Sequence record: PQ306574.1
Length of the DNA: 64,000 nucleotides
Origin: Escherichia phage vB_EcoM_PTE-Eco09
Reading direction: 5' to 3' (one strand)
In this document: positions 26,207-57,435 of the stretch, piece after piece
Numbering within the stretch: position 1 is the stretch's first letter
How the letters are laid out: every line of letters starts with the position of its first letter
Notes under the pieces: generated by a model
Told to the model about the DNA's origin: nothing
Database searches by the model: none
The model's input: only the letters and a program-made list of their open reading frames with translations
Translations under genes and position numbers: made by a program

Positions 26207-26211
26207 AGGTG

Positions 26212-26240
26212 TTGACAACCATAAACGACTATAGCATAAT
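26212..26240 (+). promoter_or_regulatory. Early promoter module (TTGACA-N17-CATAAT), conserved-leader type
   Basis: GGTGTTGACA, 17-bp spacer, TAGCATAAT, then conserved leader ATCGAAACGAAACAC..AGGAGAATCAAAATG. Confidence 0.65.
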
Positions 26241-26277
26241 GCACATATCGAAACGAAACACACTTAGGAGAATCAAA

Positions 26278-26655
26278 ATGATGATGATGTTTAAAGATAA
26301 ATTCGAATGTCACTACACCCGTAACTTTGACTTAGTATCCCGCTACTACATTCATAAAGAAACTGGCACGCAAGTAGTTCTTGAATCTCACAGCGAAGTA
26401 GGATTCGATTCAACAAAAGTAGCAATTAGTGCTCGCTTCTGGGATAACGGCAAATTTGCTTATATCGCTTGGAACGACGACGAAAATGTAATTACAGTAG
26501 CTTTCGGTGATGACTACTACACTAAAAAGACTTTCGATAGTAAGCCATCAAATGAATACCTGAAAGCGTATGTGCAGCACATGTTCCAACGTGTTCTGAC
26601 CGGAATGGAAATCAATGTCATGAAAGACATTGTAGACGAAGTAAAATTTTCTTAA
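26278..26655 (+). CDS. Hypothetical protein
   Basis: ORF trimmed to the first ATG after the promoter and AGGAGA RBS (the track N-terminus ran through the promoter). Confidence 0.55.
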   Translation: MMMMFKDKFECHYTRNFDLVSRYYIHKETGTQVVLESHSEVGFDSTKVAISARFWDNGKFAYIAWNDDENVITVAFGDDYYTKKTFDSKPSNEYLKAYVQHMFQRVLTGMEINVMKDIVDEVKFS

Positions 26656-30152: not shown

Positions 30153-30173
30153 ATTTAATGTGAGGATTATATT

Positions 30174-30494
30174 ATGAGCAAACTGTTTGAAACTCCGCGT
30201 GAAATTCTAATTGATAAGCTGAAAGAACGTGGTTTTAAAATCAAAGATGCAACCAAATACAGCCGAATTGATGAAATTAAGTTGCATTCTCTTGATGAAC
30301 TGGTAGAATATGTTGCGGCGGTTGCTGATCCGCAGTTTGATGTGATTGTAGGTGACGTTGAATATCTCGATAATGTATATTCATTCTTCACTTATGGTAA
30401 AATTGTGTCTGTGAAAATTTCATTCTGTGAAAATGTGGAGGTGCTTGCTAGTGAACCAGAAAAACCAACTGACAACGGTCCTTCGGCAGCGTAA
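30174..30494 (+). CDS. Hypothetical protein (106 aa)
   Basis: ATG with TGAGGATTATATT leader. Confidence 0.55.
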   Translation: MSKLFETPREILIDKLKERGFKIKDATKYSRIDEIKLHSLDELVEYVAAVADPQFDVIVGDVEYLDNVYSFFTYGKIVSVKISFCENVEVLASEPEKPTDNGPSAA

Positions 30495-44252: not shown

Positions 44253-44268
44253 AATCATAAAAAAGTTG

Positions 44269-44297
44269 TTGACAGGGGATCGGTGATCCCCTATACT
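44269..44297 (+). promoter_or_regulatory. Early promoter module with spacer stem-loop
   Basis: TTGACA-N17-TATACT; spacer palindrome GGGGATCGGTGATCCCC; conserved leader ATCAAAACGAAACAC. Confidence 0.6.
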
Positions 44298-44339
44298 ACA
44301 CACATCAAAACGAAACACACTTTCTTAAGGAGAATCAAA

Positions 44340-44618
44340 ATGAGCAACCTGTCTTTCGCTAAAGTAGAAATTTCTAAAACTCGCGGTGGCTTTAAAATCA
44401 AAACTTCCAACATCACTTCCTGTCGTGGTTGCGTCCGGTTTGCGTTCGACTTGGCAGCGAAGCTGGGTATTAAAACCTTTACCGTTGAGAGCGGATCTAC
44501 CTGGACCACTCTGATTGTTACTGCCGCTTGGATCAATGGCGAGTATGTAGAAAAAGCATACTTTGACATTTTCTATGACTACGAAGAAAAATGCTTTTAT
44601 GCACTGCAAGACATGTAA
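44340..44618 (+). CDS. Hypothetical protein (92 aa)
   Basis: ATG after the promoter and AAGGAGAATCAAAATG leader. Confidence 0.55.
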   Translation: MSNLSFAKVEISKTRGGFKIKTSNITSCRGCVRFAFDLAAKLGIKTFTVESGSTWTTLIVTAAWINGEYVEKAYFDIFYDYEEKCFYALQDM

Positions 44619-47385: not shown

Positions 47386-47667
47386 ATGGTAGAAATTTTT
47401 GGTTTTGAAGGTTACAACTGTAAGTATTGCCAGAATGCAAAGCGCCTTTGTGAAGCGCGTAAGATCCCTTACATCTACATTCCGGTTAATGATGGTGTGG
47501 ACGAAAACGGTCGCCCGGTAAAGATTGATTCTATCATTGCCGATATTCAGGATCGCGCAGGGGTAGAAGTTATTGCCACCATGCCGCAGATTTTCTATGA
47601 TGGTGATTATATCGGTGGCTTTGATGAGTTCCGATCCTTTGTAGTCAAAAACAAGATTAATGGTTAA
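47386..47667 (+). CDS. nrdC: Thioredoxin/glutaredoxin (T4 NrdC-like)
   Basis: CKYCQNAKRL, TMPQIF, IGGFDEF resemble T4 NrdC CVYCDNAKRL, TMPQVF, IGGFDQL; the track start is TTG, moved to ATG. Confidence 0.8.
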   Translation: MVEIFGFEGYNCKYCQNAKRLCEARKIPYIYIPVNDGVDENGRPVKIDSIIADIQDRAGVEVIATMPQIFYDGDYIGGFDEFRSFVVKNKING

Positions 47668-47691
47668 ATACCTTCTTTGGAGGGTGAATTT

Positions 47692-48165
47692 ATGTTACTG
47701 ACTGCTAAGAGTGCTAAAGAGTACAAACAAGAACTATTCGAAAAACAGGGGGGCATTTGCCCCCTTTGTCAATTGCCACTTTTTGAGGATATGAGCAAAA
47801 ACCATCTTGACCACGACCACGATCTAGATGGGAAAGGGCAAGGCCGCGTAAGGGGATTGCTTCATTCGTGTTGCAACCGCCTAGAAGGATCGTTGACCGG
47901 AGACTTTAAACGGTTTGGTGTTGGTGCTTTAGGTGCTGATTTCGTTGTTTGGGCTACAAACTATGTTAATTACATCAAAGGAGACTACACCAACAATCAT
48001 TTACATCCTCAATATGCTGTTGATAAAGTAAAACGATTTTCACGCTTGACACGCGCGGAGATGGTTGATATTATGGACGCAGAAGGTTTCGATTACTGCG
48101 ACGCTGATACAAGAGAAGAGATCACGAAGAAGTATAAGAAACAATTTATACAAAGATTAAGATAG
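47692..48165 (+). CDS. 49: Endonuclease VII, Holliday junction resolvase (T4 gp49-like)
   Basis: MLLTAK.., HLDHDHDLDGKGQGRVRGLL, NYIKGDYTNNHLHP resemble T4 endo VII. Confidence 0.85.
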   Translation: MLLTAKSAKEYKQELFEKQGGICPLCQLPLFEDMSKNHLDHDHDLDGKGQGRVRGLLHSCCNRLEGSLTGDFKRFGVGALGADFVVWATNYVNYIKGDYTNNHLHPQYAVDKVKRFSRLTRAEMVDIMDAEGFDYCDADTREEITKKYKKQFIQRLR

Positions 48166-48168
48166 TAG

Positions 48169-48197
48169 TTGACAATAAGAAATGGGAGTAGTAAAAT
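48169..48197 (+). promoter_or_regulatory. Early promoter module with stem-loop over the -10 box
   Basis: TTGACA-N17-TAAAAT; inverted repeat GGGAGTA/TACTCCC (48184-48203). Confidence 0.6.
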
Positions 48198-48228
48198 ACT
48201 CCCATCTAATCAAGAAGGAGAATCAACA

Positions 48229-48501
48229 ATGCGTAAGATGTTTAAATCCGGTGTTGCCTATGTTTTTAAATCTGAGCAAGCACATAAAGACTTCTTAGAT
48301 GATGAATACGAAGGGGTGAAAGATACCTACGAAGTCATCAAGAATGGGTTTACTGTTCTTAAAGTGTCACCTGTTGGTTATGTAAGTGAAATCTCGGTTG
48401 ATGGGAAAACATACACCGCTAAAGACTTTGATCCGCGTTGGGAATTTATGCTGCTTCCGTGTGAGCGCATTCTGTTCCGTGCTGTTCAATTAGTGAAATG
48501 A
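48229..48501 (+). CDS. Modular family protein, short form (90 aa)
   Basis: AAGGAGAATCAACAATG leader; a K/E..GF.VLKV.. module also present in the next two ORFs. Confidence 0.5.
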   Translation: MRKMFKSGVAYVFKSEQAHKDFLDDEYEGVKDTYEVIKNGFTVLKVSPVGYVSEISVDGKTYTAKDFDPRWEFMLLPCERILFRAVQLVK

Positions 48502-48515
48502 TAGAGGATTATATT

Positions 48516-49082
48516 ATGGTACAGAAAACGTATAAATTGTATCCGGCTAAGTCTTCAAATGATGCTGTTTTTGAACGAGGTCGTTATTACACTTTCCGTA
48601 ATGCTGAGTCCGCAGAGGAATTTGTTAAACGCTACCAACAACATAACAAGTTCCTGTATGGTGTGCTTCACAGGGGCTTTAAAGTTCTTACGGTTAATGT
48701 TATGGGTAAAGTGTATTTGGTAGAAACTCATGATTATGAGGGTGCGTCAATCATGATTGATGCAAGCGAGCGCAAATACTTTAAACGCATCACTAAAAAG
48801 CAGTTTGAAGAAATGAAACCAGTTAAGAAAGAAGAATCTCTGGAAGATCTGATTAACTTGTTTGGTAAAGTTCGCTCTATCTCCTTTGCGATTGAAGATG
48901 ACATTACCGACAATAAAATCTTTATCAAGAACGCGGAAGACCTGAAAGAGTTCCTTATTGAAAATAGATCTCGGCTGGAAACCTTTCTTGAAAGTGAAAT
49001 TATTCGACATGATACCTACGCTAAATTCAGCGCCGATAAAGTAGCTGAACTGAAAGAGATCCAAAAGTCATTTAACGCTTGA
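48516..49082 (+). CDS. Modular family protein (188 aa)
   Basis: AGAGGATTATATTATG leader; shares NERKYFKRI(T/S)K and a C-terminal LFG..xxLKxFLI module with 49139..50317. Confidence 0.5.
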   Translation: MVQKTYKLYPAKSSNDAVFERGRYYTFRNAESAEEFVKRYQQHNKFLYGVLHRGFKVLTVNVMGKVYLVETHDYEGASIMIDASERKYFKRITKKQFEEMKPVKKEESLEDLINLFGKVRSISFAIEDDITDNKIFIKNAEDLKEFLIENRSRLETFLESEIIRHDTYAKFSADKVAELKEIQKSFNA

Positions 49083-49107
49083 CATGATGAAACGGGAGTA
49101 GTAAGAT
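49079..49107 (+). promoter_or_regulatory. Early promoter module with stem-loop over the -10 box
   Basis: TTGACA-N17-TAAGAT; inverted repeat GGGAGTA/TACTCCC; the -35 overlaps the upstream stop codon. Confidence 0.6.
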
Positions 49108-49138
49108 ACTCCCGTCTAAACAACGAGAGGATTATATT

Positions 49139-50317
49139 ATGGCTAAATTCTTTGAAGGTCATTACTATGCATTCCGTGAAGGCGGTAAAGATGAGTTTCT
49201 AGACTTTTCTCGCTATTCAATTATTCTGACCGATGCTTCGCGCCGTGGTCATATTCGGGTTGCTGAAATCGTAGAAAAGGGCTTTAAAGTATTAGAAAAA
49301 GATGACCACGGTCATGTTATTACTATTGAAGCTGGAGATGTAGTTTATTCCGCTGAGGATATCGTTTATTATTGGTCTACTATGATTATGCACAATGAGC
49401 GCAAATACTTTAAACGTATCTCAAAAGAGGCATACGAAGCGATGAACAAGAAAGAGGATGCAATGCCGACTTACTTTGAAAAAGGTAAATGTTATTCGTT
49501 TACCCCAGAAGGTTTGCAAGAATTTAAGCGATTCTGGGGAGAGCATGACCCAGAGCACAAAGAAGCCATGAAACTTGTTGATTTTGTCGAATATGGCTTT
49601 TTAGTTGAAGAAGAATTGCACGGATCAGCTACCATGATCACCGCGAAAGGTGAAACCGTCAAGGCGGACCGTTTTTGTGACCAATGGAATTGCTTGTTTG
49701 ACGGTAGCGAATTTGAATACTTCGCGGAAATCACGAAACAACAATTTCATTCTATGCAAGCGGATGGTCAGAGATTTAAAGTAGGTGAACGCTACAAACC
49801 AAATCAGCATAATTTGCCATATTGGTTTACCGCTGAAACTGTATCAAGTCATGTTGTTGAAATTGTTCAAAAGCTGGGACAAGGATTTAAGGTAACTAAA
49901 GTAGATGATTATGGAAGTGTTGACGCGGTTGAAATTGATGGTGTAGAATATACACCGAAATCTTTCGGTCTTTGCTGGTATCACTTGATCAGCAATGATG
50001 AACGTTATAACTTTGTTGAACTGCCATCTGAACCGGAAGAAGCACTAGAAGATCATGATCATCTGTCTGAACTGGTTAAGCTGTTTGGTGATCTGCCGGA
50101 TGGTGTAGGCGTGGCGGTAATGGGTGAAGGTGCTGTTATCCGAAACCTGAAAGACTTTAAAAAGTTCTTGATTGACATGCTGCCTAAACTTGATGATAAT
50201 CTAGATACAGATATTCAGAATCGCAAAGAAATTGTTAAAGAGACTGAAAAAGAGATCGAAGAGATTCGAGCAATTCGCCAGAAGGTGAAAGCAGTAAAGA
50301 AAAAAGTTAGTGCTTGA
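49139..50317 (+). CDS. Modular family protein, long form (392 aa)
   Basis: AGAGGATTATATTATG leader; internal repeats of the module seen in the two preceding ORFs. Confidence 0.55.
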   Translation: MAKFFEGHYYAFREGGKDEFLDFSRYSIILTDASRRGHIRVAEIVEKGFKVLEKDDHGHVITIEAGDVVYSAEDIVYYWSTMIMHNERKYFKRISKEAYEAMNKKEDAMPTYFEKGKCYSFTPEGLQEFKRFWGEHDPEHKEAMKLVDFVEYGFLVEEELHGSATMITAKGETVKADRFCDQWNCLFDGSEFEYFAEITKQQFHSMQADGQRFKVGERYKPNQHNLPYWFTAETVSSHVVEIVQKLGQGFKVTKVDDYGSVDAVEIDGVEYTPKSFGLCWYHLISNDERYNFVELPSEPEEALEDHDHLSELVKLFGDLPDGVGVAVMGEGAVIRNLKDFKKFLIDMLPKLDDNLDTDIQNRKEIVKETEKEIEEIRAIRQKVKAVKKKVSA

Positions 50318-50341
50318 CATGCGAAGGGAGTATGCTATAAT
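50314..50341 (+). promoter_or_regulatory. Early promoter module with stem-loop over the -10 box
   Basis: TTGACA-N16-TATAAT; inverted repeat GGGAGTA/TACTCCC (50326-50347). Confidence 0.6.
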
Positions 50342-50371
50342 ACTCCCACTTAACAACGAGAGGATTATATT

Positions 50372-50866
50372 ATGTGGGTACAAGATGTTTGGTATACTGT
50401 AACTAAAGAAAACCTTGACGCATTCAGCGACCAATCTTGCGCTAATAGCTCAATTGCTGGTATACTTACTGATGTGTTTGGTGGTGTAGATAAAATTCGT
50501 TTTAAAGTTGTTGTTAGTTCGCTGGGTCAGGTGAAAGATCTTTACACCGAAGATAAAGACCTTGATCTTGAACTTCGTCTTCGTATTGATAATGCAAGTC
50601 TAGGTTATTGGTTTGAAGATAACGAATATGAATACTTCACGCCAGCAATTAAAGTTTTTGCGACTAAACTGGAAGCTGTACTGAATCTCCGACCAATTAA
50701 TGTTGACGGATACATTATCAAAAATATTCAGGATTGGGAGTTGTATCTAGATCAGGTTATCCGAAATAGTAAGCAGGAAGCCGCTAATAAGAAGCGACAA
50801 GAGATTAAACAGCTTAAAGCTGAACTAGAAGCTAAAGAAAAAGAATTAGCAGAACTGGTAAAATAA
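50372..50866 (+). CDS. Hypothetical protein with C-terminal coiled coil (164 aa)
   Basis: AGAGGATTATATTATG leader; KKRQEIKQLKAELEAKEKELAELVK. Confidence 0.55.
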   Translation: MWVQDVWYTVTKENLDAFSDQSCANSSIAGILTDVFGGVDKIRFKVVVSSLGQVKDLYTEDKDLDLELRLRIDNASLGYWFEDNEYEYFTPAIKVFATKLEAVLNLRPINVDGYIIKNIQDWELYLDQVIRNSKQEAANKKRQEIKQLKAELEAKEKELAELVK

Positions 50867-50875
50867 CTATCAACG

Positions 50876-50898
50876 AGCGGGAGAAATCCCGCTTTTTC
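50876..50898 (+). terminator. Rho-independent terminator
   Basis: AGCGGGAGAAATCCCGCT hairpin followed by TTTTT. Confidence 0.6.
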
Positions 50899-50910
50899 AT
50901 AGGTGATACA

Positions 50911-52773
50911 ATGGAAAAACTAATCAAAGACATTACAGAGATCGCAACGGGTAAAGAAAACGAAGTAAGCAAAGAGAACGCGAACAAAGACGCGCGAACA
51001 TTCCCGACACGTCGAGATCTGATTGCTGGCGCTGTGTCTAAACAGATTGCTAAAACCGTGTTACCTGAGCACATCTATAAAGCGCATGTAGACGGTGATA
51101 TTCATTATCATGATATGGATTATGCACCAGCTATGCCGTTTACTAACTGCTGTCTTGTTAATCTCAAAGACATGTTAGAGAATGGTTTTAAATTGGGTAG
51201 CGCACAAATCGAAAGTCCGAAATCAATCGGCGTTGCTTGTGCTGTAACCGCTCAAATTATCGCACAGGTGGCAAGTCATCAATATGGCGGGACCACAATT
51301 GCAAACATCGATCAGGTTTTAGCGCCATACGTTGAGAAAACATATCATAAACACCTTGCTGATGCCGAAACCTACGGAATCAAAGCTGATACTCTCTATG
51401 CACAAGAGAAGACAGAAAAAGAAACTTTAGACGGGTATCAAGCGTTGGAATATGAAATCAACACTTTGTTCTCCACCAACGGTCAAACGCCTTTTGTGAC
51501 TTTAACCTTTGGTATGGGTACTAGCTGGGAAGAAAAACTGATTCAGAAAGCGATCCTGAACGTTCGAACTAAAGGTTTAGGTAAAGATGGTATCACTCCG
51601 GTGTTTCCTAAGCTGGTGATGTTCTTAGAAGAAGGATTAAACCTTAAACCGGAAGATCCGAACTACGACATTAAGCAACTTGCATTGGAATGTTCGAGTA
51701 AGCGTCTTTACCCTGATTATATCTCTGCGAAGAATAACCGTAGCATCACTGGATCTAGTGTTCCGGTTAGCCCGATGGGTTGTCGTAGCTTCCTGGGTGT
51801 GTGGCATAATGAGAAAGGCGAAGAAGTATTAGACGGACGTAATAACTTAGGTGTTGTGACTCTGAATCTTCCGCGTATTGCCCTTATTGCCGCGCGTCGT
51901 GCTGGTAAAGCGTCTGTAATGCGCAGAATTGAGCTATTCGAACAAGAGCTAGCTAATCGTATGCCTATTTGTTTTGATGCGCTCATGAGTCGCGTAGACG
52001 CTTTAAAAGGCGCTAAAGCCAATGTTGCTCCTGTACTATATACCGAAGGTGCATTTTTCCGTATTCATCAAAACGATGAAATTTTGGAAGTGTTGAAAGA
52101 TGGTCGCGCTAGTATCTCTCTTGGATATATTGGTTTACATGAGGTATTGAGCGTCCTGTTTGATGTTCATCCGTTTGATTCGGAAGATGCGCAGCGATAC
52201 GGTAAACATATTCTTAAGATCTTGCGTCATTATACTGAAAAATGGAAGGACGAAACCGGACTTGGGTTTAGTCTTTACGGTACTCCAGCCGAGAGCCTTT
52301 GCTATCGATTTAATCGACTGGACCGAGAGCAATTTGGTATTGTTAAGGGTGCTACCGATAAAGACTGGTACACCAACTCATTCCACCTTGACGTAGACCG
52401 GAAAGTCACTCCATTTGAGAAAATTGACTTTGAGAAAGATTATCACTGGCTGGCGTCCGGTGGCATGATCTCTTATGTTGAGTTCCCAGACATGAAAAAC
52501 AACCTGAAAGGTCTTGAAACTGTAGTAGACTATGCAATGGATAAATTGCACTACTTCGGTGTTAATACTCCTTCTGATGTATGTCATGTATGCGGATCTA
52601 CTAAGGAAATGAGAGCGACCGAGTCTGGTTTTGTTTGTCCTGATTGCGGTAATGACAATCTGGAAAAGATGAATGTTATCCGTCGCGTTAGTGGATATCT
52701 TGGATCTGTTGATCTGCGTCCATTCAACCACGGGAAACACTCCGAGATGGTAAACCGCGTTAAGCACATGTAA
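50911..52773 (+). CDS. nrdD: Anaerobic ribonucleoside-triphosphate reductase
   Basis: 620 aa; long stretches resemble T4 NrdD (NANKDARTFPTRRDL, PFTNCCLVNLKDMLENGFKLGSAQIE, C-terminal glycyl-radical RRVSGYLG); no intron. Confidence 0.9.
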   Translation: MEKLIKDITEIATGKENEVSKENANKDARTFPTRRDLIAGAVSKQIAKTVLPEHIYKAHVDGDIHYHDMDYAPAMPFTNCCLVNLKDMLENGFKLGSAQIESPKSIGVACAVTAQIIAQVASHQYGGTTIANIDQVLAPYVEKTYHKHLADAETYGIKADTLYAQEKTEKETLDGYQALEYEINTLFSTNGQTPFVTLTFGMGTSWEEKLIQKAILNVRTKGLGKDGITPVFPKLVMFLEEGLNLKPEDPNYDIKQLALECSSKRLYPDYISAKNNRSITGSSVPVSPMGCRSFLGVWHNEKGEEVLDGRNNLGVVTLNLPRIALIAARRAGKASVMRRIELFEQELANRMPICFDALMSRVDALKGAKANVAPVLYTEGAFFRIHQNDEILEVLKDGRASISLGYIGLHEVLSVLFDVHPFDSEDAQRYGKHILKILRHYTEKWKDETGLGFSLYGTPAESLCYRFNRLDREQFGIVKGATDKDWYTNSFHLDVDRKVTPFEKIDFEKDYHWLASGGMISYVEFPDMKNNLKGLETVVDYAMDKLHYFGVNTPSDVCHVCGSTKEMRATESGFVCPDCGNDNLEKMNVIRRVSGYLGSVDLRPFNHGKHSEMVNRVKHM

Positions 52774-52778
52774 ATTTC

Positions 52779-52810
52779 AGCCGATCCGAAAGGGTCGGCT
52801 TTTTCGTTTT
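52779..52810 (+). terminator. Rho-independent terminator
   Basis: AGCCGATCCGAAAGGGTCGGCT hairpin followed by TTTTTCGTTTT. Confidence 0.7.
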
Positions 52811-52816
52811 GGGGTG

Positions 52817-52844
52817 TTGACAACATGATTAGCTAATGTATAAT
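52817..52844 (+). promoter_or_regulatory. Early promoter module (TTGACA-N16-TATAAT)
   Basis: GGGGTGTTGACA..TGTATAAT. Confidence 0.65.
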
Positions 52845-54186: not shown

Positions 54187-54679
54187 TACATACGGCAAGC
54201 TACGCTATGCCGATATTAAAGATTGTGATATGGTGAACGGTGAGGGAGTGAGAGTCTCCCTTTACGTTACCGGATGTTCACACGCATGTGATGGTTGCTT
54301 TAATGCTAGCCTACTCAATCCTAAGAACGGGGAACCATTCACCGATGATACAATGGGATTGATTCTGGATCTGCTTAGACCTGATTTTATTCAGGGGCTA
54401 ACATTCTTAGGTGGCGATCCATTGTATAAACGCAATTTAAAGGGTGTACAGCGGATCATCGATGAAGTAAAATCATGGATGCCAAATAAAGATATTTGGC
54501 TATGGTCTGGTTATACCCTTGACCAATTGAATGATGAGCAAAGAAAAATTGTAGAATCAGTTGACATGTTCATCGATGGGCGTTATATTAAAGATATGCC
54601 AACGAAGAAGCCGTGGCGGGGGTCTGACAATCAAGTACAATACAAGATTGTTAATAGTATTCCAGTGAAAATTATTTGA
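54176..54679 (+). CDS. nrdG: Anaerobic ribonucleotide reductase activating protein (radical SAM)
   Basis: YVTGCSHACDGCFN CxxxCxxC cluster; 167 aa; adjacent to nrdD. Confidence 0.8.
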   Translation: MSSDTYGKLRYADIKDCDMVNGEGVRVSLYVTGCSHACDGCFNASLLNPKNGEPFTDDTMGLILDLLRPDFIQGLTFLGGDPLYKRNLKGVQRIIDEVKSWMPNKDIWLWSGYTLDQLNDEQRKIVESVDMFIDGRYIKDMPTKKPWRGSDNQVQYKIVNSIPVKII

Positions 54680-54689
54680 GGTGATTATT

Positions 54690-55217
54690 ATGGAATGGGA
54701 AGTTGGTAAAACTTACAAGATTGAATGCGAAGCGTCGAAAGCCGAACTGACTAAATTTTCGTCGTCTATTAACAGATGTATTGTTGACTTGTTGGCTGGT
54801 CGCCCGTTTAGGGTAGAAGACCTTGACGATGATGGTGATGTTAGAGAAATTACTATTATTGGTAGTAATTTCGACTCTATGACGTTAAAAGAATCCCCTA
54901 TTGGCTGTTCCGGTGTGTGGTTTTGGTCGGGTGAGCGTCGTTTCTTTACCGAAGTTACTATTGAACCTAAGATTCCAGAATCGGAAGAAAAAGAAGAAGA
55001 CCTAACTTTAGAACGTCTGGGTCTGCTTATGGAAGCCTACGACATTCAGTTGATCGATAAGATGGGGTTACATAATAGCATTGCCAAAATTACTACCATA
55101 GAAGGTATTAAGAGCGTACTGGATGGTATGCCTAGCCGGATCGGTGCTATCCGCGAATACAAGCAAACGCGCGACCGTATGATCCAATTAGAATCACGTA
55201 TCAAAAATGAGAGATGA
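54690..55217 (+). CDS. Repeat-module family protein 1 (WEVGKTY module)
   Basis: MEWEVGKTYK..WFWSGERRFFTEV; GAGGTGA RBS. Confidence 0.5.
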   Translation: MEWEVGKTYKIECEASKAELTKFSSSINRCIVDLLAGRPFRVEDLDDDGDVREITIIGSNFDSMTLKESPIGCSGVWFWSGERRFFTEVTIEPKIPESEEKEEDLTLERLGLLMEAYDIQLIDKMGLHNSIAKITTIEGIKSVLDGMPSRIGAIREYKQTRDRMIQLESRIKNER

Positions 55218-55221
55218 TATT

Positions 55222-55707
55222 ATGAAATGGGAAGAAGGGAAGACATATAAGTTGGTTGGTGAGGACGAAAAGCGCATTTTGCGTGATTGTTGGCGTTACG
55301 AACAAAAACCTAATATTGATGGTGTGTTTACATATCTAGATAAACCATTTACTGTCGCTACGGTAGACCGTTGGGGTAATGTACGTTCAATCTATAATCA
55401 CGAAGGGGATTATATTAGTTCTATCGATGTTGGTGATAATATATGGTTTTCCGATGGCGACCGAGCGTGCTTCAAAGAAGTTTTATTGCCTGGTCATGAA
55501 TATGATCTAATAGACCTTCTCAAATTGGCGATGGATAATTATAAAATTCGCTTTGAATGCAAATCACATGCGGCTATCGGTGCTAATGCCTTGCGTCATA
55601 TCTCCAGTTTTGAAGAGTTGAAAGATTTTCTTGACAAAATGCCGGAAAGAGTGCAAGCTATACAGGAAGCAGAGAAAGCATTAAACGAACTTGATAAAAT
55701 CGGTTAA
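55222..55707 (+). CDS. Repeat-module family protein 2
   Basis: MKWEEGKTYK..WFSDGDRACFKEV; C-terminal helical tail similar to protein 1. Confidence 0.5.
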   Translation: MKWEEGKTYKLVGEDEKRILRDCWRYEQKPNIDGVFTYLDKPFTVATVDRWGNVRSIYNHEGDYISSIDVGDNIWFSDGDRACFKEVLLPGHEYDLIDLLKLAMDNYKIRFECKSHAAIGANALRHISSFEELKDFLDKMPERVQAIQEAEKALNELDKIG

Positions 55708-55719
55708 GGGGAATATATT

Positions 55720-56286
55720 ATGAAATGGGAAATTGGTAAAACTTACACCTGGAAAGATGAAAACGCTAAAACTGAGTTTATTACTAACGGAGAAGGTGTT
55801 CTTTCTCCACTTAACAGCGATATTAGTGCAGCTATTGGTGACAAGCCATTTACCATCATCGAGATCGATGGTAACGGTTGGATTGATGCAATAGAGCTAG
55901 ACGGTGTTTATCATACGGCGAAAACTGCTACAGGAAAAGACATTTGGACTGCAACATATTTCTTTAGTCCATTCGATCGAAAATTCTTTCGTGAAGTTGA
56001 AGAAGTTCCCCAGAAATGGGAAGTTGGTAAAACTTATACTTGGAAAGATGCGAATGCTATGACCGACTTCTGTCATTATGCTGAAAACGTATCTAATCTT
56101 AATTATGTTATTGCACGAGCAATAAATTATAGACCTTTTACTGTTAAAAATGTTCGTCCATGTGGGCAAATTGATGTAATTGAAATTGATGGTAAAGACC
56201 ATACTCTAATGAGCGCAACCGAAGATAGAGACCATAAGGAACTAGCTGGTTTATTGATTCTGATAGAAAATTCTTTCGTGAAGTAG
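55720..56286 (+). CDS. Repeat-module family protein 3 (two tandem modules; second module frameshifted at its end)
   Basis: MKWEIGKTYTWKDENA..FDRKFFREVEEV then KWEVGKTYTWKDANA..; the reading frame loses the module end about 56235-56250. Confidence 0.45.
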   Translation: MKWEIGKTYTWKDENAKTEFITNGEGVLSPLNSDISAAIGDKPFTIIEIDGNGWIDAIELDGVYHTAKTATGKDIWTATYFFSPFDRKFFREVEEVPQKWEVGKTYTWKDANAMTDFCHYAENVSNLNYVIARAINYRPFTVKNVRPCGQIDVIEIDGKDHTLMSATEDRDHKELAGLLILIENSFVK

Positions 56287-56291
56287 AAGAA

Positions 56292-56543
56292 TTGGAAGTT
56301 ATAACCACTGATTCTAAGATCGTTGGACAGTTGAAACGTCTGTTTAGTAGTCGTTACGGCCTGACAATGGTTAAATTTGGCGAAGCAAATGAAGGTAAAA
56401 CCTTTGAACGTTTCGATGATTTCATTGCGGCACTTGACAAGATGGATGAAATCATGCAAGATCGCCAGAAGATTAAAGACCTTCAAGAAGACATTAAACG
56501 TCGTGAAGTTGAATTTTTGATTGGTAAAGAGCGAGGTTGGTAA
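56292..56543 (+). pseudogene. Frame-shifted continuation of repeat-module protein 3 (probable disrupted gene segment)
   Basis: In the -1 frame from 56238 the DNA encodes GTSWFIDSDRKFFREVEEL.., homologous to the module end and continuing to 56543; there is no ATG start (the track start is TTG). Confidence 0.4.
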
Positions 56544-56544
56544 T

Positions 56545-57021
56545 ATGTTTGTTGTTGGTATGACCTATCAGTGGAAAAACGAACAAGCGCGTAAAGCATT
56601 TGCAACCAGTGATGCGAATCGTGTGATCTCCGAGTTTATCGGGGACCGTGCGTTTAAAGTCTTAGCTATTGATTCATCTAGTATACCTGAGTATGTTTCT
56701 GTGATTGAAATCGATGGTAAGGCTTACCAGTGTCCAGACAATGAAAAGGTTTATCTTTATGCTTGTAATTGGTTTTCGCCTACAGAAGATCAATATTTTA
56801 AAGTGGTATCAGCAGAGCTATCATCCGAAGCAATGATGCAACAATTCTTCAATAACTACGAAGTTTCTGTGCGTCGCTATGGCGAAGAAGAAGTGTTTAA
56901 AATCGATGATTACAATCAGTTTAAACGAGTATTCGCCACTAAGTTACAGCGTGACTTTGAACGTGACCAACGGATCAAGGAACTGGAAGAAGAACTAGAA
57001 AGATTAAAGGCTGAGAAATGA
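56545..57021 (+). CDS. Repeat-module family protein 4
   Basis: MFVVGMTYQWKNEQA..WFSPTEDQYFKVV; CGAGGTTGG RBS. Confidence 0.5.
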   Translation: MFVVGMTYQWKNEQARKAFATSDANRVISEFIGDRAFKVLAIDSSSIPEYVSVIEIDGKAYQCPDNEKVYLYACNWFSPTEDQYFKVVSAELSSEAMMQQFFNNYEVSVRRYGEEEVFKIDDYNQFKRVFATKLQRDFERDQRIKELEEELERLKAEK

Positions 57022-57287
57022 TCGAGATATACGGTATACCGAAAGAGGCTTATCATTGTTATGGTTGTATTAGTGCAATGAAGCTACTGGATGATCTGGG
57101 TATTCCGTATACACTTAAACCAGTATTCAAGCAGGTCGGGGTTGACATTATTCCCGACCGTGATATGATTGAAGAACTGGCGGGGAGGCTAAACTCAAAG
57201 AGCCTCCGGTTTGTATACCCCCAGATATTCATTGACAACGAGCACATTGGAGGCTATAAAGAACTGAGGGCGATTTATGATTATTGA
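57018..57287 (+). CDS. nrdH: Glutaredoxin-like protein (NrdH-like)
   Basis: CYGC redox motif near the N-terminus; IGGYKEL near the C-terminus; ATGA overlap with the upstream gene. Confidence 0.6.
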   Translation: MIEIYGIPKEAYHCYGCISAMKLLDDLGIPYTLKPVFKQVGVDIIPDRDMIEELAGRLNSKSLRFVYPQIFIDNEHIGGYKELRAIYDY

Positions 57288-57435
57288 GAATTTAGTTTCG
57301 GTGTTCATTATTGCTTTATTTGCTATAATGGCTTTACCGTTGAAGAAGTGTAAACACTGTAACGGAACAGGATTGCGTGGTGATGGGTGTTGCGCTCATT
57401 GTCACGGATCTGGTAAAGTAAGTATCATTAAGTAA
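57277..57435 (+). CDS. Small membrane-anchored DnaJ-type zinc-finger protein (52 aa)
   Basis: Hydrophobic N-terminus then CKHCNGTG..CAHCHGSG (two CxxCxGxG motifs); overlaps the nrdH stop; not in the ORF track. Confidence 0.4.
   Translation: MIIENLVSVFIIALFAIMALPLKKCKHCNGTGLRGDGCCAHCHGSGKVSIIK

Follow-up and report, generated by a model that had tools for sequence, protein, structure and literature searches.

Is the run of small genes between gp49 and nrdD of an RB49-type phage a single gene family, and was that family built by the promoter modules that lie among its members? Small early genes of unknown function make up roughly a third of T4-type genomes. For three consecutive genes of this run, an original prediction had proposed modular paralogs of increasing length, each with its own stem-loop promoter module and produced by module-mediated duplication and domain shuffling. 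The DNA analyzed here (the window) is a stretch of 64,000 nucleotides from Escherichia phage vB_EcoM_PTE-Eco09 (PQ306574.1), a Krischvirus (RB49-type) T4-like coliphage.

The three genes are real relatives of ancient divergence and belong to a known family of small early proteins of phages, GoF/Frd.2; the promoter/stem-loop cassettes that drive them are PeSLs (promoter-early stem-loops), which have also been described before. The finding is mostly ordinary, in that both elements are of known kinds, and what is new is a set of added members and a tandem-domain architecture; the family is larger and more modular than the annotation says. Taken as a whole, the best explanation, in which the interval between gp49 and nrdD is a hyperplastic region of an RB49-type coliphage carrying an array of this family, merits good confidence. 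Current concepts are left unchanged by it, and two published ones are extended.

A repeated domain in four consecutive genes

The first cluster is described with two units: D, a domain of about 90 amino acids (aa) common to g90, g188, and g392, and C, a C-terminal module common to g188 and g392.

48229..48501, + strand: g90, 90 aa, RB49p060 orthologue; single D without C tail; D profile E value of 6.5e-26; dN/dS of 0.16
48516..49082, + strand: g188, 188 aa, RB49p059 orthologue; 16-aa N-terminal extension, D (aa 17 to 100), then C module
49139..50317, + strand: g392, 392 aa, RB49p058 "frd.2" orthologue; three tandem D, then C module
49139-49453, + strand: g392 D1, aa 1 to 105
49454-49762, + strand: g392 D2, aa 106 to 208
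49763-50038, + strand: g392 D3, aa 209 to 300
50039-50314, + strand: g392 C module with coiled-coil tail, aa 301 to 392
50372..50866, + strand: g164, 164 aa, RB49p057 orthologue; divergent D (aa 1 to 90) and coiled-coil tail
50875..50899, + strand: canonical intrinsic terminator, GCGGGAGAAATCCCGC followed by TTTTT (fold z of −4.5), which ends the four-gene block just before nrdD

The open reading frames of the three predicted genes are exact in their coordinates, and the motifs claimed for them are present. The first two genes share the core G..Y.F......F...Y.V...GF.VL.V, and the last two share (S/N)ERKYFKRI(T/S)K together with the tail LFG...(I/L)(K/R)N..D.K.FLI. In BLASTP, the relationship goes beyond chance for g188 and g392 (E value of 7e-7) and for g90 and g392 (9e-5), and the C tails of g188 and g392 alone align with an E value of 2e-5. 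A hidden Markov model (HMM) whose training set excluded g392 and its orthologues retrieved three separate D domains in g392, at residues 3 to 96 (E value of 4.7e-15), 113 to 200 (6.2e-12), and 212 to 295 (1.5e-14), which bears out the internal duplications proposed for this protein. The same HMM, which contains no T4 sequences either, scores g90, g188, g392 (three domains), and g164 at 1e-7 to 1e-41. The architectures are D for g90, D-C for g188, D-D-D-C for g392, and, with a putative C, D-C for g164.

With g164 the block has a fourth member, identified by the D profile (E value of 1.4e-7 to 2.2e-7) and by phrog_3710, which is common to g164 and g392; the length of the genes thus does not increase along the family as had been supposed. 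The tail of g164 shows no significant homology to the C-module profile (E value of 0.07 to 0.4), and that of T4 GoF is likewise not significantly linked.

The resemblance might in principle be a low-complexity or compositional coincidence among unrelated ORFans, given that pairwise identities are low and that neither Pfam (E ≤ 1) nor NCBIfam (E ≤ 0.01) gave a match, with Complex1_LYR, FF, and L23 appearing only as sub-threshold noise. This reading is refuted, and its probability is practically nil: the independent profile reaches E values of 1e-15 per domain, a search of 1.84 billion representatives yielded 74 proteins, mostly of phage size, that form a coherent set, and the confident AF2 fold described below retrieves other family members from BFVD. 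Long cellular repeat proteins (P0063, P0065, P0079, and others) were discarded as beta-hairpin noise, as only 20 to 30 profile positions match, and RepX/TubZ, which the D profile matched among PDB sequences (E value of 0.006 over 75 residues), was considered spurious, being without fold support and far below family scores. Nearly all matches in word-indexed homologue searches are Krischvirus relatives; tblastn with g392 or the distant single-D relative P0086 retrieved only the 58 Krischvirus records, and a related-locus search with g392 as the query retrieved only 3 loci.

The promoter modules are PeSLs

Three modules punctuate the block, as follows.

48169..48228, + strand: PeSL 1, after the gp49 stop; −35 TTGACA at 48169-48174, stem-loop GGGAGTA/TACTCCC at 48184-48203 overlapping the −10, −10 TAAAAT at 48192-48197, Shine-Dalgarno AAGGAG at 48215-48220; 11/12 consensus; z of −3.1
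49079..49138, + strand: PeSL 2; −35 TTGACA at 49079-49084, stem-loop at 49094-49113, −10 TAAGAT at 49102-49107, Shine-Dalgarno GAGAGG; 10/12 consensus; z of −3.3
50314..50371, + strand: PeSL 3; −35 TTGACA at 50314-50319, stem-loop at 50326-50347, −10 TATAAT at 50336-50341, Shine-Dalgarno GAGAGG; 12/12 consensus; z of −2.4

Stem-loop modules do occur at 48169, 49079, and 50314, but they precede g90, g392, and g164 and not, as had been claimed, each of the first three genes. None stands before g188, which starts 14 nt past the g90 stop with only a Shine-Dalgarno sequence in between, and because g188 has no promoter of its own, it is likely co-transcribed with g90. Both g188 and g392 end with a TGA that falls within the −35 TTGACA of the module that follows (PeSL 2 and PeSL 3, respectively). 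The module pattern is matched three times, against an expectation of zero from shuffles. All three modules display sigma-70-like boxes at a spacing of 16 to 18 nt and a stem-loop between or overlapping the boxes, in an intergenic position with a stop codon on the 5′ side and a Shine-Dalgarno/ATG on the 3′ side. Their hairpins have GC-rich stems of 8 to 9 bp that overlap the −10 box (fold z of −2.4 to −3.3), and sequence inspection revealed no U-run 3′ of the hairpins at these three sites.

PeSLs were described in RB49 itself in 2010, and promoter and terminator/attenuator activity was shown for other PeSLs (Arbiol et al. 2010, PMC2839356). The published cassettes of RB49/phi1 (PMC2839356; Comeau et al. 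2014, PMC4122927) come from the same phage species as the one studied here and likewise combine a sigma-70 promoter and a stem-loop with a stop codon and Shine-Dalgarno/ATG inside the cassette, in a hyperplastic location. Nothing essential differs, except that the cassette here consists of two genes of one family and not of a single ORFan; the particular locus is not named in the text of PMC2839356 that was searched.

The block would comprise three transcription units (g90 with g188, g392, and g164), each beginning at a PeSL, a promoter of sigma-70 consensus type in which the hairpin is formed by the spacer together with the −10 region. Transcription is predicted to start 3′ of the hairpin, so that the hairpin would be present only in read-through RNA from upstream, which fits the published attenuator/terminator role. 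Judged from their consensus promoters (10 to 12 of 12 positions upstream of g90, g392, and g164), the genes are predicted to be early.

A second array beyond nrdD-nrdG

Four further members are found at 54690-57021, downstream of nrdD/nrdG.

54690..55217, + strand: RB49p051 orthologue, D-C; D profile E value of 1.3e-32
55207..55707, + strand: RB49p050 orthologue, D-C with an alternative D allele
55720..56543, + strand: RB49p049 orthologue, D-D-C, 274 aa in RB49 and FL20
56545..57021, + strand: RB49p048 orthologue, D-C; D profile E value of 3.7e-24

The D-D-C gene appears to be broken in this phage sequence by a 1-nt deletion at ∼56236 into two open reading frames (55720-56286 and 56292-56543). 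With this frameshifted gene (55720-56543) left aside, dN/dS lies between 0.09 and 0.44 across the seven genes tested, which shows that the genes are real. The phage type carries a total of nine family genes, of which eight stand in the two arrays on either side of nrdD-nrdG, and twelve D domains; as this count covers about 86% of RB49, the recently defined GoF/Frd.2/MotB.1 family can reach nine or more genes and twelve or more domains per phage.

Ancient duplication and continuing recombination

In one alternative, which follows the original prediction, the paralogs would be young copies made by module recombination, each having received its module along with it. In agreement with this, PeSL 1 and PeSL 2 are 72% identical over 78 nt, the GGGAGTA/TACTCCC stem is common to all three modules, and recombination between PeSLs does occur at this locus (as detailed below). 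However, identity among the paralogs is only 16 to 52%, the D units within the first block are only 22 to 39% identical to each other, and the gene arrangement is kept in 56 of the 58 Krischvirus genomes, so that the duplications are ancient and not recent. Self-comparison of the region bears out repeats that are detectable at the protein level only: the DNA itself repeats only in the PeSLs, around the Shine-Dalgarno sequences and starts, and in short patches, of which the longest extends over 50 nt of ERKYFKRI with 78% identity. Moreover, the stem is also present at three other RB49 sites, which indicates a dispersed PeSL subtype and no local copy. As no module lies inside g392 or before g188, neither the gene duplications nor the triplication within g392 can be attributed to the modules. 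A recent, module-driven origin is thus largely refuted and very improbable; what stands of it is that the modules are active in recombination.

The origin of the family is better explained by local tandem duplications, long past, that involved both genes and the D unit; each D is most similar to neighboring D units. Homologous recombination continues to remodel the family along two routes. By the first, crossovers between PeSLs insert or excise whole cassettes. Phage KFS-EC lacks exactly 910 bp, containing g90 and g188, between the PeSLs at 48169 and 49079; this length equals the spacing of PeSL 1 and PeSL 2, and a single hybrid (chimeric) PeSL is kept at the junction. This is PeSL-mediated cassette loss or gain as in PMC2839356, and a further natural example resembling the ORFan192 case of that study, where one chimeric PeSL was also left.

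By the second route, crossovers between repeated D-coding segments alter how many D copies a gene has and exchange D alleles, whereas the C tails stay constant. Phage E26 has D-C where the second cluster has the D-D-C gene, and in relatives the orthologues of g164 and RB49p050 combine exchanged D alleles with a constant C tail, with FL20 carrying a divergent D allele in its g164 orthologue. The proposed domain shuffling is thereby seen among relatives, and comparison of related genomes retrieved all three kinds of variant (absence of the cassette, D copy number, and D allele). The recent changes in D copy number fall inside repeated coding sequence and outside the modules. The beta-barrel domain thus acts as a duplicable and swappable unit, and two recombination substrates, the PeSL cassettes and the repeated coding sequence, create natural variants within a single genus. 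The cassette-less KFS-EC, the D-C and D-D-C forms, and the alternative D alleles on one C tail provide material for functional study.

A minor feature of the coding sequence is a stretch of 20 nt over ERKYFKR that is identical between g188 and g392. It could be a small gene-conversion tract, but this was set aside because coincidence of synonymous codons is sufficient (roughly a p value of 0.02, by a rough estimate).

The D domain as a predicted SH3/LSm-like barrel of the GoF family

An AF2 model of g188, computed from a 32-sequence alignment headed by g188, has a pLDDT above 90 over D, with five strands (24-27, 55-60, 66-70, 77-81, and 89-92) and two helices inserted after strand 1; g392 modeled without an alignment reached a pLDDT of 40.6 and was unusable. 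The predicted fold fits a bent five-stranded antiparallel beta-sheet of the SH3/LSm-like type, the nearest solved structures are FeoA-type domains, and a BFVD search matched, at E ≤ 1e-3, the GoF protein of phage VR7 as well as many proteins from T4-like phages. By this model, D is an SH3/LSm-like small beta-barrel and C is an alpha/beta plus coiled-coil module. In searches for Hfq and Sm/LSm proteins proper, neither Sm1/Sm2 motifs nor a match to the LSM or FeoA families of Pfam were found, and the D profile retrieved no Sm or Hfq chain from PDB. Unlike Hfq, Sm/LSm, and FeoA-type barrels, most D domains are acidic, and the modeled D contains the two inserted helices. The pI is 4.3 to 5.0 in 8 of the 11 D domains of the window, the others being g188b-D2 (5.9), g90 (6.6), and the basic D of g188 (9.4).

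The HMM built without T4 or g392 sequences matches T4 GoF (E value of 6e-16), Frd.2 (6e-8), and MotB.1 (9e-5), and the PHROG goF families 8944 and 13003 match as well. The T4 proteins (Kim et al. 2025, PMC12152347) have the same N-terminal five-stranded beta-barrel domain of about 90 aa, followed by an acidic or flexible linker and a C-terminal domain, and are also encoded in non-core regions, by early genes as is predicted for those here. The linker and variable C-terminal domain are found in g188, g392, g164, and the second-cluster proteins, g90 being tail-less. In contrast to the nine genes and twelve D domains of this phage type, T4 has three dispersed single-domain genes; PMC12152347 mentions neither tandem D-D-D-C and D-D-C proteins nor a tail-less D. 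Krischvirus lies outside Tevenvirinae, and neither goF nor motB.1 occupies the T4-syntenic site in this phage type. With identities of only 16 to 28% to their T4 namesakes Frd.2 and GoF, the labels "frd.2" and "goF" express family-level relationship and not orthology. The RefSeq label of both RB49p059 and RB49p058 is "goF mRNA metabolism modulator."

Possible functions

Judged from their sequences, the proteins are probably non-essential early host-takeover proteins, in which the D barrel would serve as a ligand-binding module and the coiled-coil tail as an oligomerization module. Because most D domains are acidic, protein targets are favored for most copies, although with slightly less than even confidence.

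By analogy with T4 GoF(D25Y), direct RNA binding or mRNA stabilization is possible but rather unlikely, and the best candidate for it is the basic D of g188. The same doubtful standing applies to the broader proposal that D domains are true LSm-like RNA binders that stabilize or remodel early/middle mRNAs of the phage. One member of the family is GoF: rho defects are suppressed by its D25Y and G84R mutants, and D25Y also lengthens the half-life of gene 41 mRNA, whereas wild-type GoF and MotB.1 showed no such effect (PMC12152347). The suppressor site G84 aligns with the natural basic residue (K/R) of the ERKYF/ERRFF motif in g188, g392-D1, and the second-cluster D units; D25 falls in an indel-rich loop and could not be placed on the paralogs by alignment. 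Another RB49 family member, Dc2, is located directly upstream of gene 41. Besides the behavior of the wild-type proteins, the acidity of most D domains, the missing Sm1/Sm2 signature and LSM match, and the nearest fold, FeoA, being a protein-interaction SH3-like domain, argue against this proposal.

A diversifying adaptor or anti-host family, in which variable D domains recognize host proteins (possibly defense or RNA-decay factors), constant C modules oligomerize or anchor, and an arms race keeps the diversity, appears comparably tentative. Within the genus, D is much more divergent than C in g164, g178, g166a, and g166b (minimum identity of 44 to 58% for D versus 63 to 94% for C), and whole D alleles are swapped; the genes, predicted to be early, belong to a hyperplastic region, T4 can dispense with its own, and the predicted fold is an acidic SH3-like barrel. 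However, dN/dS remains below 0.45 throughout, with no direct sign of positive selection, and the D domains of g90, g188, and g392 are well conserved (at least 76% identity).

A more far-reaching and improbable proposal is that tandem-D proteins form covalently linked multi-barrel assemblies, such as a D-D-D-C coiled-coil dimer with six LSm/SH3-like barrels (a pseudo-hexamer), and that the arrays on both sides of the genes for anaerobic ribonucleotide reductase form a diversifying toolkit, with swappable D domains directed against host RNA-decay or defense factors and constant C modules for assembly. If this is true, T4-like phages would possess a host-takeover system of a new kind, modular and driven by recombination. 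For the T4 family, no confident homomultimer models were obtained (PMC12152347).

Domain architecture of the gene cluster

The segment from 47600 to 51000 of the window is matched by 58 Krischvirus genomes (RB49-type, Straboviridae), with 99.9% identity in Escherichia phage kaaroe and 97.6% in RB49. On the upstream side, the annotated neighbors are dam, nrdC, and the endonuclease VII gene (gene 49); on the downstream side, nrdD. The original prediction described three paralogs of increasing length, but the next ORF, g164, also belongs to the family, and the apparent increase is an accident of where that description stopped. The genes of this cluster (cluster 1) are as follows.

Cluster 1 genes, with D for the repeated domain and C for the C-terminal module
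g90, 48229-48501, 90 aa, D; orthologue of RB49p060
g188, 48516-49082, 188 aa, D-C; orthologue of RB49p059 (RefSeq name "goF mRNA metabolism modulator")
g392, 49139-50317, 392 aa, D-D-D-C; orthologue of RB49p058 (GenBank gene name frd.2)
g164, 50372-50866, 164 aa; fourth ORF in the row, orthologue of RB49p057

The sequence motifs quoted in support of the paralogy are present in the ORFs, and similarity among the genes is above chance (BLASTP E values of 7e-7 for g188-g392, 9e-5 for g90-g392, and 5e-5 for the tail region of g188-g392). Compared alone, the C tails of g188 and g392 are 28% identical across 58 residues (E 2e-5). Internal duplication in g392 was confirmed with a profile built without g392, its orthologues, or any T4 protein, which detected three separate domains, as follows.

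D copies of g392 detected with the independent profile
D1, residues 3-96, E 4.7e-15
D2, residues 113-200, E 6.2e-12
D3, residues 212-295, E 1.5e-14

The unit comprises about 90 amino acids plus a short helix (I-T/S-K..F/Y..M) acting as a linker. In g164, D occupies residues 1 to 90 (E 2e-7 after one profile iteration and 1.4e-7 with the independent profile). This protein and g392 have phrog_3710 in common, and its gene shares with g392 D2 a 31-nt DNA patch (84%) over F(D/E).(S/N)E(F/Y)EYF. Self-comparison of the DNA did reveal repeats, but apart from the promoter modules and the Shine-Dalgarno/start regions these are short patches of at most 50 nt (78%, over ERKYFKRI). Judged from these comparisons, the paralogy is old and detectable at the protein level only.

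Relationship to T4 GoF and fold of the D domain

A D profile built without T4 sequences retrieves T4 GoF (141 aa; E 6e-16), Frd.2 (E 6e-8), and MotB.1 (E 9e-5). These form a family of T4 early proteins in which a flexible linker connects a five-stranded LSm/SH3-like barrel at the N terminus to C-terminal domains that vary; the closest solved structures are FeoA-type SH3-like domains (Kim et al. 2025, PMC12152347). With 16 to 28% identity to the T4 proteins, the names "frd.2" and "goF" apply here at the family level only.

The AF2 model of g188 was computed from an alignment of 32 rows (window paralogs plus database relatives) and reaches a pLDDT of >90 at residues 20 to 100. It presents strands at residues 24-27, 55-60, 66-70, 77-81, and 89-92, with two helices following strand 1, and its C module ends in a long helix (pLDDT up to 81). 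A fold search of BFVD retrieved 51 viral proteins (E <= 1e-3); among them are GoF of phage VR7 and representatives from T4-like phages that infect Aeromonas, Acinetobacter, Serratia, Proteus, Pectobacterium, Edwardsiella, Erwinia, and Cronobacter. Foldseek against the PDB gave nothing significant, with SH3/KOW-type barrels ranked top, and Pfam and NCBIfam hold no model for the D family. A HMMER scan of 1.84 billion representatives identified 74 proteins at E <= 1e-3, mostly of 80 to 270 aa. About a dozen of them have two or three D copies, showing that tandem D domains are also found outside Krischvirus.

Further family members in RB49-type phages

The D profile also matches four consecutive genes (cluster 2) located between nrdG and nrdH, so that the family lies on both sides of the anaerobic ribonucleotide reductase genes.

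Cluster 2 genes
54690-55217, D-C
55207-55707, D-C
55720-56543, D-D-C
56545-57021, D-C

The 274-aa D-D-C gene is split into ORFs of 188 and 83 aa by a 1-nt deletion at ~56236, within an A-run (CCATAAAGG -> CCATAAGG, relative to RB49 and FL20); FL20 is 99.7% identical around this region. Either the frameshift is genuine or the deletion reflects an error in sequencing.

RB49 contains nine family genes with twelve D domains in the ~86% of its genome scanned, and neither goF nor motB.1 was found at the T4-syntenic site. The ninth member is Dc2 (RB49p021; 211 aa; L013 11993-12628, outside the window), which matches with an E value of 1.5e-8 and has ECD7 Dc2 as a structural hit in BFVD. Dc2 is immediately followed by gene 41, and T4 GoF(D25Y) affects the mRNA of that gene; the adjacency may be coincidental. 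Weak matches (E 0.005 to 0.04 in a 400-ORF search) to the small ORFs at 30159-30491, 26209-26652, and 44253-44615 could be very divergent members or noise.

PeSL promoter modules

The modules at 48169, 49079, and 50314 are, by their sequence, PeSLs (promoter-early stem-loops), first found in RB49 and phi1 (Arbiol et al. 2010, PMC2839356). A PeSL combines a sigma-70 consensus promoter with a stem-loop that can overlap the -35 and -10 boxes or fall between them, and is bordered by the upstream stop codon at the 5' edge and the Shine-Dalgarno/ATG at the 3' edge. Each genome carries about 50, mostly in hyperplastic regions; for some, activity as promoter and as terminator has been demonstrated (PMC2839356).

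PeSLs of cluster 1, with hexamer matches to the consensus
PeSL1, 48169, 11/12
PeSL2, 49079, 10/12
PeSL3, 50314, 12/12

All three have GGGAGTA/TACTCCC stems of 8 to 9 bp that overlap the -10 box. The proposal that a module precedes each gene holds for g90 and g392, and also for g164, but not for g188, which starts 14 nt past the g90 stop with a Shine-Dalgarno only and must therefore be co-transcribed with g90. The predicted start site lies immediately 3' of each hairpin; the hairpin would thus be absent from the PeSL's own transcript and present only in read-through RNA from upstream. This fits an attenuator role, though the hairpins carry no U-run. A canonical terminator is found 3' of g164 (50875-50899).

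The TGA stops of g188 and g392 fall inside the -35 TTGACA of the next PeSL (49080-49084 and 50315-50319), which packs coding and regulatory signals together extremely tightly. The same GGGAGTA...TACTCCC stem occurs in hyperplastic regions at L015 16967, 44213, and 44720 (RB49 ~131.5, 158.7, and 159.2 kb), indicating that this PeSL subtype is scattered through the genome and is not a local copy. Right after nrdD, 52779-52844 contains a strong intrinsic terminator (AGCCGATCCGAAAGGGTCGGCT plus a T-run) and, 17 nt further on, a sigma-70 promoter that matches the consensus at 12/12 positions (TTGACA, 16 nt, TATAAT).

Origin of the copies and recombination in relatives

In cluster 1, identity is 39% between g188 D and g392 D1, 30% between g90 and D1, and 31% between D1 and D2. 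In cluster 2, the two units of the D-D-C gene share 52% and the remaining units 30 to 36%; g164 is closer to cluster 2. Because D units resemble their own neighbors most, the pattern is best described as local tandem duplication. With its D closest to D1 and its tail homologous, g188 looks like g392 without D2 and D3.

Module-mediated shuffling, as originally predicted, is supported in part: relatives show cassette and D changes, but the modules do not account for the duplications that created g90, g188, and g392. These duplications are ancient; no PeSL occurs within g392 or ahead of g188, and the four-gene order is unbroken in 56 of the 58 genomes. KFS-EC matches the region over only 1942 nt, versus 2851, and between gene 49 and nrdD it encodes no more than the orthologues of g392 and g164. 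The missing 910 bp equal the PeSL1-PeSL2 spacing, and the junction aligns with gene 49 on the left and g392 on the right of a single hybrid PeSL, an event of the same kind as the ORFan192 case documented by Arbiol et al. (PMC2839356).

In cluster 2, the place of the 274-aa D-D-C gene of RB49, KFS-EC, and FL20 is taken in E26 by a 178-aa D-C gene. Within the D-D-C gene, the two repeats that encode D have a common 47-nt start (89%) and 31-nt end (97%), which would be ideal for unequal crossover. Metagenomic proteins include D1-C and D2-C forms and a chimera of two adjacent genes. Orthologues of p050 (the cluster 2 gene named after RB49p050) and of g164 carry highly divergent D alleles on nearly identical C tails.

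Cluster 2 of KFS-EC (L008 291-755) has three genes instead of four, the p051 orthologue being absent. Its first remaining gene begins with MEWEAGK, as p051 does, and not MKLEAGK, which points to a crossover joining adjacent paralogs at their similar 5' ends. The g164 orthologue of FL20, JK32, and Brandy contains ~300 nt that megablast cannot align because of their divergence (50395-50700; L006 2373-2867). Inspection, confined to FL20, identified the stretch as the D domain, with a C tail that is nearly identical; on the sequence comparison, this amounts to a whole-domain allele replacement. The window is mosaic relative to database phages, as the two clusters differ in their nearest relative: cluster 1 (47600-51000) is 99.8 to 99.9% identical to kaaroe, and cluster 2 (54500-57300) is 99.7% identical to FL20, with the kaaroe alignment covering only 91%. 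RB49 likewise aligns over 91% and has a different D allele, which makes the D domain of the p050 orthologue the probable divergent stretch in kaaroe.

Both components are of known kinds: PeSLs have been described in the same phage species and the protein family in T4, and RefSeq labels two of the genes here goF-like. Family membership of g90, g164, the four cluster 2 genes, and Dc2, the tandem-D architectures, the two arrays flanking nrdD-nrdG, and the natural KFS-EC, E26, and FL20 variants were not found in the available literature. The novelty consists of added members and an architectural variant, and its significance is modest.

Selection and possible function

The dN/dS values of seven genes, tested with 5 to 8 Krischvirus orthologues and leaving out the frameshifted D-D-C gene, range from 0.09 to 0.44, indicating purifying selection on all seven. 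In T4, gene 41 mRNA is stabilized by the GoF(D25Y) mutant only, and G84R is a second rho-suppressor mutation in GoF (PMC12152347). G84 aligns with the basic residue of the conserved ERKYF/ERRFF/DRKFF, a motif flagged in the original prediction.

Eight of the 11 D domains of the window have a pI of 4.3 to 5.0, the exceptions being g188b-D2 (5.9), g90 (6.6), and the D of g188 (9.4). The acidity of most D copies and the FeoA-like fold slightly favor protein binding over general RNA binding for the majority of copies, with g188 as the best candidate RNA binder. The long terminal helix in the model suggests that the C module may serve in oligomerization.
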